Source: a virus (taxonomy: Duplodnaviria > Heunggongvirae > Uroviricota > Caudoviricetes). From it: a stretch of 5,821 bases of DNA. The DNA lies in the IMG/VR virus record IMGVR_UViG_2660238499_000005. The stretch is one strand, 5' to 3'. Position numbers and translations under genes: made by a program. Positions within the stretch are counted from its first letter, which is position 1, and every line of letters starts with the position of its first letter. Under the pieces are notes generated by a model, which searched no databases, was not told where the DNA came from, and saw only the letters and a list, made by a program, of their open reading frames with translations. This document shows, piece after piece, positions 1,652-2,095 of the stretch.

Positions 1652-2095
1652 ATGAAACACGATTATTACGAAGCTCCAAACCTAAATGATAAAATTGCAA
1701 AGGCGGCAAAATCATTTTGTTTGCACTCCAGTGCGTCTTCCCAGCTAGCAGGTATATCTGGAAAAAGATGGGACATGCTACAATCAAGTGGTAGCAGTGG
1801 GTCTGGGAGTGATAACATGCCTGAAAAAGTTGCAAAACTGGAGTCCGATGTTGCTCATATCAAACGAGACGTTGATGAACTTAAAACAGACGTTAAAGCT
1901 ATCGACAAAAATATGATAACTATTCTTGCACGTCTGGACTCTATAAAAGAATCCTTAACAAACAAGCCATCAAGTGATGCTGTCGATAGAAAGATTTCAG
2001 ACGCAAAGCTTGCGGTATTGCTTGGTGTTCCAGCAATCATCGCTGCAGGAACAGGACTTTATAAGCTATCAATGTACTTTTTCTTTAGTGCTTAA
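1652..2095 (+). CDS. Hypothetical 147-aa protein: N-terminal region, Ser/Gly linker, coiled coil, single C-terminal transmembrane anchor
   Basis: ORF starts 12 nt after the upstream stop (possible translational coupling, no SD). Contains SSGSSGSGSD linker, heptad-like KLESDVAHIKRDVDELKTDVKAIDKNMITILARLDSIKE, and hydrophobic LAVLLGVPAIIAAGTGLYKL near the C-terminus. An in-frame ATG at 1817 with strong SD GGGAG (1805-1809, 7-nt spacer) would give a 92-aa coiled-coil + TM product. Confidence 0.65.
   Translation: MKHDYYEAPNLNDKIAKAAKSFCLHSSASSQLAGISGKRWDMLQSSGSSGSGSDNMPEKVAKLESDVAHIKRDVDELKTDVKAIDKNMITILARLDSIKESLTNKPSSDAVDRKISDAKLAVLLGVPAIIAAGTGLYKLSMYFFFSA

Follow-up and report, generated by a model that had tools for sequence, protein, structure and literature searches.

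What does a small phage gene with two plausible translation starts encode when it sits directly behind a prophage repressor? Such a gene lies at positions 1652-2095 (+ strand) of the Caudoviricetes record IMGVR_UViG_2660238499_000005 (IMG/VR), a stretch of 5,821 nucleotides (nt) that is referred to at its full length as the window. The original prediction, made from the letters and their open reading frames (ORFs), described a tail-anchored coiled-coil protein of 147 amino acids (aa) with a first ATG at 1652 and an internal in-frame ATG at 1817. Here we describe ORF 1652-2095 as a real gene, the second of a two-gene cargo module and a member of an uncharacterised phage family. The comparative sequence data indicate that both of its starts are kept by selection, and both may well be used in the cell. 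The features of the gene and of its partner are these:

1376-1639, + strand: upstream partner gene encoding a soluble protein of 87 aa (phrog_4231; PHROG match 7e-54, function unknown)
1652-2095, + strand: long form, 147 aa, an intact ORF (phrog_3556; RefSeq WP_223648163.1)
1652-1816, + strand: variable N-terminal module, with a helix at residues 10-26 and a disordered Ser/Gly-rich linker at residues 27-55
1805-1809, + strand: internal Shine-Dalgarno (SD) sequence GGGAG, with a 7-nt spacer to ATG 1817
1817-2095, + strand: short form, 92 aa, with coiled coil, hinge and transmembrane (TM) segment, from the in-frame ATG 1817 at codon 56
1817-1960, + strand: coiled coil, residues 56-103, from heptads and the AlphaFold2 model
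1961-1972, + strand: hinge (K/N)KPS between the coiled coil and the juxtamembrane helix
2003-2065, + strand: juxtamembrane and TM segment AKLAVLLGVPAIIAAGTGLYK at the hydropathy peak, followed by 9 residues

An AlphaFold2 model of the long form, built with 37 homologues, has helices at residues 10-26, 56-103 and 108-146, with a break at NKPS (residues 104-107). The predicted local distance difference test score (pLDDT) is 78-85 for the second helix, and residues 27-55 are disordered with a pLDDT below 50. The coiled coil runs unbroken for 6.5 heptads (residues 58-104), and L, I, V or M occupies 13 of its 13 a and d positions, which none of 20000 shuffles equalled. Kyte-Doolittle hydropathy over 19 residues peaks at 1.80 (residues 118-136) and is at most 0.46 elsewhere, which delimits a single C-terminal hydrophobic helix at approximately 118-138. 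Conservation across 33 distinct homologous loci puts both features above chance. The tail-anchored coiled-coil architecture that was originally predicted is borne out. The helix-turn-helix (HTH)-like stretch proposed at residues 30-43 is not; it has a pLDDT below 50, forms no helix pair, is poorly conserved among orthologues and has no HTH match in Pfam.

Conservation is concentrated near the membrane. In the hinge K105 and P106 are invariant and S107 is nearly so. The TM region is the most conserved part of the subfamily, with A118, K119, L120, L124, V126, P127 and T134 invariant. The near-invariance of the TM and juxtamembrane segment (AKLAVLLGVPAIIAxGTGxYK) suggests that it may be more than an anchor and could serve, for example, in self-association or contact with a host membrane protein. 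The protein is predicted to be tail-anchored in the inner membrane with its N-terminus inside, because it has no signal peptide, a C-tail of 9 residues and a charged juxtamembrane segment. A sequence-profile search of the PDB returned coiled coils only (E >= 0.034). Some of these are known trimers (the P22-type tail-needle proteins, Lpp and the designed CC-Tri peptide), and they are a lead for trimer formation rather than evidence of it. A Foldseek search of the 147-aa model against viral structures gave nothing below E 4.

The two starts of the window copy are of very different strength. ATG 1652 lies 12 nt after the TAA of the partner gene (1637-1639) and lacks an SD, with an anti-SD duplex of +0.6 kcal/mol. 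ATG 1817 follows its GGGAG with a duplex of -6.8 kcal/mol, a value matched by only 6.5% of the + strand ATGs in the window. These values agree with the original description of an SD-less first start and a strong internal start that would yield a 92-aa product. RNA folding pairs the internal SD with downstream codons at a z score of only -1.38, and no regulatory hairpin is claimed there or at the long start.

The starts were compared across 33 distinct upstream regions of homologous loci. At every locus with a readable junction M56 is matched by an ATG codon, or by GTG in a single E. coli clade. GGAGG or GGGAG stands 4-10 nt 5' of the internal start in 30 of the 33 regions, as GGAGG at a spacing of 7 nt (15 regions), 4 nt (8) or 10 nt (4), or as GGGAG at a spacing of 7 (3); the others carry GGAG (2) or GGGGG (1). 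The original prediction had made its internal start depend on such conservation among orthologues, which is thus found for the ATG and the SD alike. The anti-SD duplex has a median of -10.6 kcal/mol at the internal start and -5.1 kcal/mol at the long start, and it is the internal one that is stronger in 32 of the 33. Of 30 Gly codons at position -4, 23 are GGA; by comparison, the share of GGA is 17.8% in long ORFs nearby and 13% (6 of 47) further back in the same linkers, at -7 to -9. This preference argues that the internal SD is not just a consequence of Gly-Gly and is selected at the nucleotide level. The Met-to-Val clade was considered as an independent test and dropped, since no Val codon other than GTG can be reached from ATG in one step; the clade shows no more than retained start function.

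The part upstream of the internal start is itself coding. At all loci except two (L013 and L015) the frame is open back to an ATG at -20 to +29 nt relative to the stop codon of the ORF before it. Among window-type orthologues the ratio of nonsynonymous to synonymous substitution rates (dN/dS) of the N-part is 0.15-0.57, and indels occur in whole codons only. The C-part has a dN/dS of 0.11-0.13 in three pairs with the same TM type. When it is compared with the homologue in the Salmonella P22-like phage UPF_BP1, most pairs are saturated and the one that is measurable gives 0.23. At L013 and L015 a single copy of the coiled-coil/TM gene has a leader of only 9 codons, with GGAG 8 nt 5' of the ATG. 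Existing gene calls are split in the same way as the starts; the Prokaryotic Genome Annotation Pipeline (PGAP) gives 147 aa and many assemblies give 90-93 aa (P0010, P0014, P0017).

The family to which the gene belongs is modular. The 147-aa protein matches the phrog_3556 profile over residues 1-146 (E 1.7e-58), for which PHROG lists the function as unknown, and searches of the literature by accession and for exclusion proteins of the tail-anchored coiled-coil type brought up nothing about it. Homologues are spread across the Enterobacterales, including Escherichia, Salmonella, Pantoea, Erwinia, Serratia, Klebsiella, Rahnella and Enterobacter. They share a plan of an N-part of 0-80 aa, a Gly-rich run, the motif Met-(x)-Glu-x-Arg-[VIL]-Ala-x-Leu-Glu, the coiled coil, KKPS and a C-terminal TM segment, and the subfamilies are set apart by an exact 7-residue indel in the coiled coil. 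The N-part is hypervariable and is exchanged as a whole across the family, with the coiled-coil/TM part kept, which supports the original suggestion that the first 55 residues could be a separable domain; the genes with the 9-codon leader agree with this. N-part types recombine with at least five TM types.

The upstream partner gene is hypervariable as well. The upstream ORFs fall into eight unrelated clusters, each with its own N-part type, and this co-variation points to a probable interaction between the N-terminal head and its partner. In UPF_BP1 the partner is 95% identical to that of the window, and the second protein has an overall identity of 39%, its divergence lying mostly in the C-part. 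The AlphaFold2 model of the window partner (pLDDT 78) has strands at residues 20-26, 33-46 and 54-66 and a C-terminal helix at 67-86. The partner protein has no Pfam, PADLOC or PDB-fold match, and a Foldseek search of its model against the PDB gave nothing below E 0.19; a resemblance to the COMM domain was set aside as not significant. Pfam scans of the seven other upstream-partner types likewise gave no family. In two Pantoea/Erwinia genomes (L014 3561-4300 and L017 3595-4291) the partner position is filled by a coiled-coil/TM paralogue of 99 and 85 aa, respectively, with a different TM type, as tandem copies by an AraC-type gene.

The family is narrow. A profile search of 1.84 billion representatives places approximately 29 clusters in the true family (E<=1e-10), and the weaker matches are generic coiled-coil proteins, for which reason a bridge to XhlA or DUF2730 is unsupported. 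Scans of both cargo proteins against Pfam, NCBIfam and PADLOC gave only sub-threshold coiled-coil matches. In the representative search, long proteins (600-3300 aa) aligned repeatedly, in 4-12 stretches, to the first 50 positions of the profile. Large phage or surface coiled-coil proteins may therefore share the KLESDV...ELK...DV unit as a repeat.

The transcription unit of the pair and its control sites are these:

523-572, no strand assigned: operator-like repeat region on the OR side, 5' of the repressor gene, a direct repeat
565-593, + strand: PRM-like promoter TTGACC-17-TAAATT from the promoter scan, ending 7 nt before ATG 601
601-1293, + strand: cI-like repressor (HTH_3 and Peptidase_S24 in Pfam), the first gene of the unit
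1293-2169, + strand: cargo module of two accessory genes, 877 bp between the cI stop and the shared terminator
2170-2200, + strand: strong intrinsic terminator closing the cI-87-147 unit at the t_imm position, with a 9-bp stem, 6 GC pairs and a T-run
2324-2373, no strand assigned: OL/PL-like region of operator-like repeats with a promoter-like site at 2339-2367

The regions 523-572 and 2324-2373 form a 50-nt direct repeat that is 72% identical, with inverted-repeat arms common to both. In intact relatives the OL/PL-like region is followed by kil, gam, bet and exo. The repressor matches PF00717 (1.5e-18) and PF01381 (1.5e-6) and is annotated by RefSeq as a 693-nt XRE family regulator (WP_001295669.1). 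The ORF listing runs its frame up to TTG 565, whereas the RefSeq start is 601. ATG 601 has no SD (anti-SD duplex -0.1 kcal/mol) and the promoter ends 7 nt from it, which suggests a leaderless PRM-type cI mRNA; promoter function of 565-593 is assumed by analogy with lambda PRM. No + strand terminator was found between the cI, 87-aa and 147-aa genes before 2170. The pair thus lies between OR and OL with no earlier terminator and stands where lambda has rexAB, after cI and ahead of the immunity terminator and OL-PL.

This position is a polymorphic slot. In an ST131 prophage whose slot is empty, homology with the window breaks off at 1292 and picks up again at 2170, which defines 1293-2169 as cargo. 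The terminator at 2170-2200 is kept in empty-slot prophages and is part of the backbone, not of the cargo. Approximately 2000 complete E. coli genomes have the same repressor allele but match no further than the cI stop codon; only 27 of 5426 have the whole queried region (window 500-2400). Other E. coli prophages carry other cargo in the slot between cI and the terminator:

L088 4407-6008: SIR2 protein matching PADLOC PDC-S25 (E 1e-234)
L087 4376-5778: DUF6932 pair matching PADLOC PDC-M63A/B (7e-43, 4e-42)
L089 3242-4095: Panacea-domain pair, with no PADLOC match
L090 3361-4224: 287-aa protein without any match

The Panacea-domain pair and the 287-aa protein are further uncharacterised candidates. 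The interval between cI and N, which contains rexAB and bstA, is known as a hotspot of mosaicism (PMC8585504). Elsewhere in the family the ORF directly 5' of the pair is cI-like (HTH or HTH with S24, of varied sequence) in nine of the ten other loci examined. In UPF_BP1 the homologous pair follows mnt and precedes gene 16, where it replaces the orf59a/sieA segment of P22; SieA is expressed by the prophage from that slot (PMC10883804). An unannotated 62-aa ORF (L003 6517-6705) stands between the UPF_BP1 pair and gene 16. It has a strong SD (AAGGAGG), two hydrophobic segments and no significant similarity to P22 SieA.

Placement in a slot of the rexAB/sieA type within the repressor operon argues for a function in the lysogen rather than in lysis. 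We propose, at about an even chance of being right, that the gene encodes a lysogen-expressed, tail-anchored coiled-coil protein of the inner membrane in two nested forms, of which the long one docks the partner through its head and the short one sets or damps activity, and that the module protects against other phages. A cI-87-147 transcript from the PRM-type unit would express the cargo in the lysogen. The long form would be made from ATG 1652 by translational coupling to the partner gene, and the headless short form from ATG 1817 through its own stronger ribosome-binding site. The coiled coil would oligomerise at the cytoplasmic face of the inner membrane, where the head of the long form would dock its cognate partner. 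The short form would co-assemble through the coiled coil, such that the ratio of long to short form would set or damp activity. The lysogen would then be protected from other phages by membrane exclusion or by abortive membrane damage.

A more ambitious version of this proposal is put forward tentatively and with clearly less confidence. The pair and its relatives could constitute a new modular exclusion or abortive-infection family of the Enterobacterales, in which a tail-anchored coiled-coil effector or scaffold carries exchangeable sensor heads with cognate partners. The internal start would give a headless regulator or self-immunity isoform, like Esc for SieB, and the GGAGG-ATG junction would double as a recombination joint.

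Several observations weigh against the proposal. The defence role is argued from position, slot-mates and the precedents of RexAB, SieA, SieB/Esc and BstA, not from homology, and the pair matches no PADLOC model. In PADLOC-DB v2 the 147-aa protein gave coiled-coil noise (E >= 0.0037) and the 87-aa protein nothing. The TM segment is moderately hydrophobic, with a position-independent Hessa sum of +4.2 kcal/mol. A minority of the family is found away from repressor operons, either in moron islands of the tail region (L004, L010) or at the ends of prophages, and the Pantoea copies (L013-L017) adjoin an AraC-type gene of uncertain origin. The window copy sits in a heavily decayed remnant where its expression is putative, and with an SD-less long start the long form may be very rare in that lineage.

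Two alternatives concern the starts. The 92-aa protein might be the only functional product in the window lineage, with the 55 upstream codons a leftover head that is rarely or never translated. This would fit the contrast between +0.6 and -6.8 kcal/mol at ATG 1652 and ATG 1817, the relaxed dN/dS of the N-part in close pairs (0.46-0.57), the existence of genes almost without an N-part and the many gene callers that pick the short form. We consider it unlikely because the N-part frame is open, with whole-codon indels and a dN/dS below 1, down to 0.15, because the 12-nt gap to the partner stop fits translational coupling and recurs in all lineages, and because N-module types go with partner types, a pattern that an N-part that is not made would hardly account for. 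Conversely, the long form might be the only product, and the internal ATG and GGAGG merely what results when a hydrophobic heptad residue comes after a Gly-rich linker. Gly-Gly does require GGN-GGN, which is SD-like, Met suits a core or N-cap position of a coiled coil, and RefSeq annotates the 147-aa form alone. Yet GGA is favoured specifically at codon -4 (23 of 30, against 13% at -7 to -9), the sole Met replacement in the family is GTG-Val, still a start codon, and the SD-ATG persists in L013 and L015 without the Gly linker. These points leave very little probability for a long form alone.

Two further alternatives concern function. The long form might tether the partner at the membrane and release it on a membrane or envelope signal, thereby tuning the repressor or induction. 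Membrane sequestration of regulators is a known bacterial strategy, the gene appears to be co-transcribed with cI or mnt in most contexts, and the pairing of head and partner is specific. Such a regulator of lysogeny or induction is nevertheless decidedly unlikely; the partner has no DNA-binding or known regulatory fold, the same cargo occurs with different repressor alleles and also away from any repressor, and the slot-mates are cargo of the defence or toxin-antitoxin type. The least probable of the alternatives is a lysis accessory of the XhlA or holin-partner type that would act together with the prophage's holin and endolysin as the lytic cycle ends. It has the XhlA-type architecture and weak profile matches in its favour (phrog_1193 at 1.3e-4, PF10779 at 0.053). 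Against these, the Pfam match is sub-threshold and the distant matches of the family profile are generic coiled coils, the gene belongs to the repressor transcription unit, where it lies upstream of PL and points away from the late genes, and intact relatives have their lysis cassette elsewhere.

Comparison with known systems places the proposed exclusion module closest to RexAB, by position and by its make-up of a soluble and a membrane protein, and to SieB/Esc, by its nested products; these are functional analogies and not memberships. Like lambda RexA/RexB, which act in abortive infection and are encoded in the cI-rexA-rexB unit, the pair consists of two cargo genes between cI and the immunity terminator/OL/PL that appear to be transcribed with cI, and it combines a soluble protein with an inner-membrane protein of approximately 145 aa. 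The two systems have no sequence similarity, with no RexA/RexB family among the Pfam matches and no Rex-type PADLOC match. RexB is a multi-pass channel, in contrast to the one C-terminal TM segment here, and RexA has 279 aa against 87 for the partner. Rex activity is thought to be modulated by the relative dose of the membrane component (PMC8585504). The headless short form described here may parallel that dosage effect.

In P22 SieB/Esc one prophage gene likewise gives a full-length and an N-terminally truncated product from an in-frame internal start, to which the two predicted forms here are similar. The details of Esc were reportedly worked out by Ranade and Poteete in 1993. The genes are not homologous; no SieB family is among the Pfam matches and SieB belongs to the PL operon. 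P22 exclusion depends critically on which of the nested peptides is chosen (PMC13397905). The switch uses the antisense RNA sas, whereas the promoter scan showed no antisense promoter at the window locus. The likeness to P22 SieA in position concerns the UPF_BP1 pair, which shares the slot between mnt and gene 16, and not the window copy. Like SieA, the 147-aa protein would be a prophage-expressed protein of the inner membrane, as far as its prediction holds. SieA is a single superinfection exclusion protein of 164 aa with several hydrophobic segments and its own promoter, in contrast to two genes and one TM segment here, and homology to it was rejected (BLASTP E 1.7).

XhlA (PF10779) and the PHROG 'hemolysin' proteins of Gram-positive phage lysis cassettes are also small, with an N-terminal coiled coil and a C-terminal TM segment. 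The initial comparison with XhlA therefore stands for architecture but fails for kinship. The PF10779 match covers the coiled-coil part only and scores 14.1 bits against a cut-off of 34.7 (E 0.053), and the phrog_1193 'hemolysin' match (1.3e-4) is weak and driven by coiled-coil composition. The gene here has in addition a variable head and a partner gene, and it is outside the lysis cassette, which in intact relatives (essD-rrrD-rzpD) is approximately 10 kb away. The holin/antiholin pair of lambda (S105/S107) resembles it in having two in-frame starts in a phage membrane-protein gene and in the co-assembly expected of the products. Holins have starts 1-3 codons apart and two or more TM domains (class I/II) and are late genes, whereas here the starts are 55 codons apart in a repressor operon and there is a single tail anchor. 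ElaB, YqjD and YgaM (DUF883) are C-tail-anchored E. coli proteins of approximately 100 aa encoded by chromosomal stationary-phase genes. They share the plan of a helical cytoplasmic protein with one C-terminal TM segment in the inner membrane; DUF883 is absent from the 17 Pfam families listed at E<=1.

The window itself represents a lambdoid prophage in decay, seated at the E. coli tRNA-Arg(tct)/fimZ locus; it has these further features:

255-422, - strand: tail fibre assembly gene (tfa), C-terminal fragment
2645-2851: kil-like cell-division inhibitor gene, intact
from 2927: gam, truncated, with a deletion joint at approximately 3113 where bet and exo were removed
3239-3430: DUF1382 ORF
3441-3719: C-terminal integrase fragment, the sole remainder of the integrase, adjoining tRNA-Arg(tct)
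3735-3811, - strand: tRNA-Arg(tct)
3991-4686: fimZ, with sfm genes beyond

Most of the prophage is gone, and the remnant retains intact cI, the cargo pair and kil. The match to intact prophages begins at window 447 and has internal deletions. Gene order in intact relatives is a leftward cro-like gene, then rightward the cI-like repressor, the 87-aa ORF and the 147-aa ORF, a gap of approximately 550 bp and kil-gam-bet-exo. In the window the cro side is missing and the tfa fragment abuts the operator region of the immunity module at approximately 447. Among 5426 complete E. coli genomes, EC2641 alone shares this junction. Window 289-489 (- strand) matches Rfam RF02111 over its full length at 177.7 bits; this is IS009, a candidate small RNA of E. 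coli, and the match spans the tfa fragment and the rearrangement junction. In an intact relative (L001 7020-8915) a gene for a NACHT-domain protein lies among the replication and nin genes, which is likely another site of defence cargo.

The anatomy of this gene is unusually well backed by comparative data; its function is inferred, and the locus is well suited to experiment. Annotation pipelines disagree between 147 and 92 aa, and both calls are probably right. The exchangeable head and partner on a constant anchor offer a natural swap series for specificity versus effector function, and the slot between cI and the terminator in such prophages deserves to be mined as a hotspot of defence cargo. 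Should the pair block phages and both isoforms be produced, it would be an uncharacterised two-gene addition to the immunity-region defences RexAB, BstA and SieA/SieB. It would also be a clean, genetically tractable case of isoform-ratio control by nested starts.

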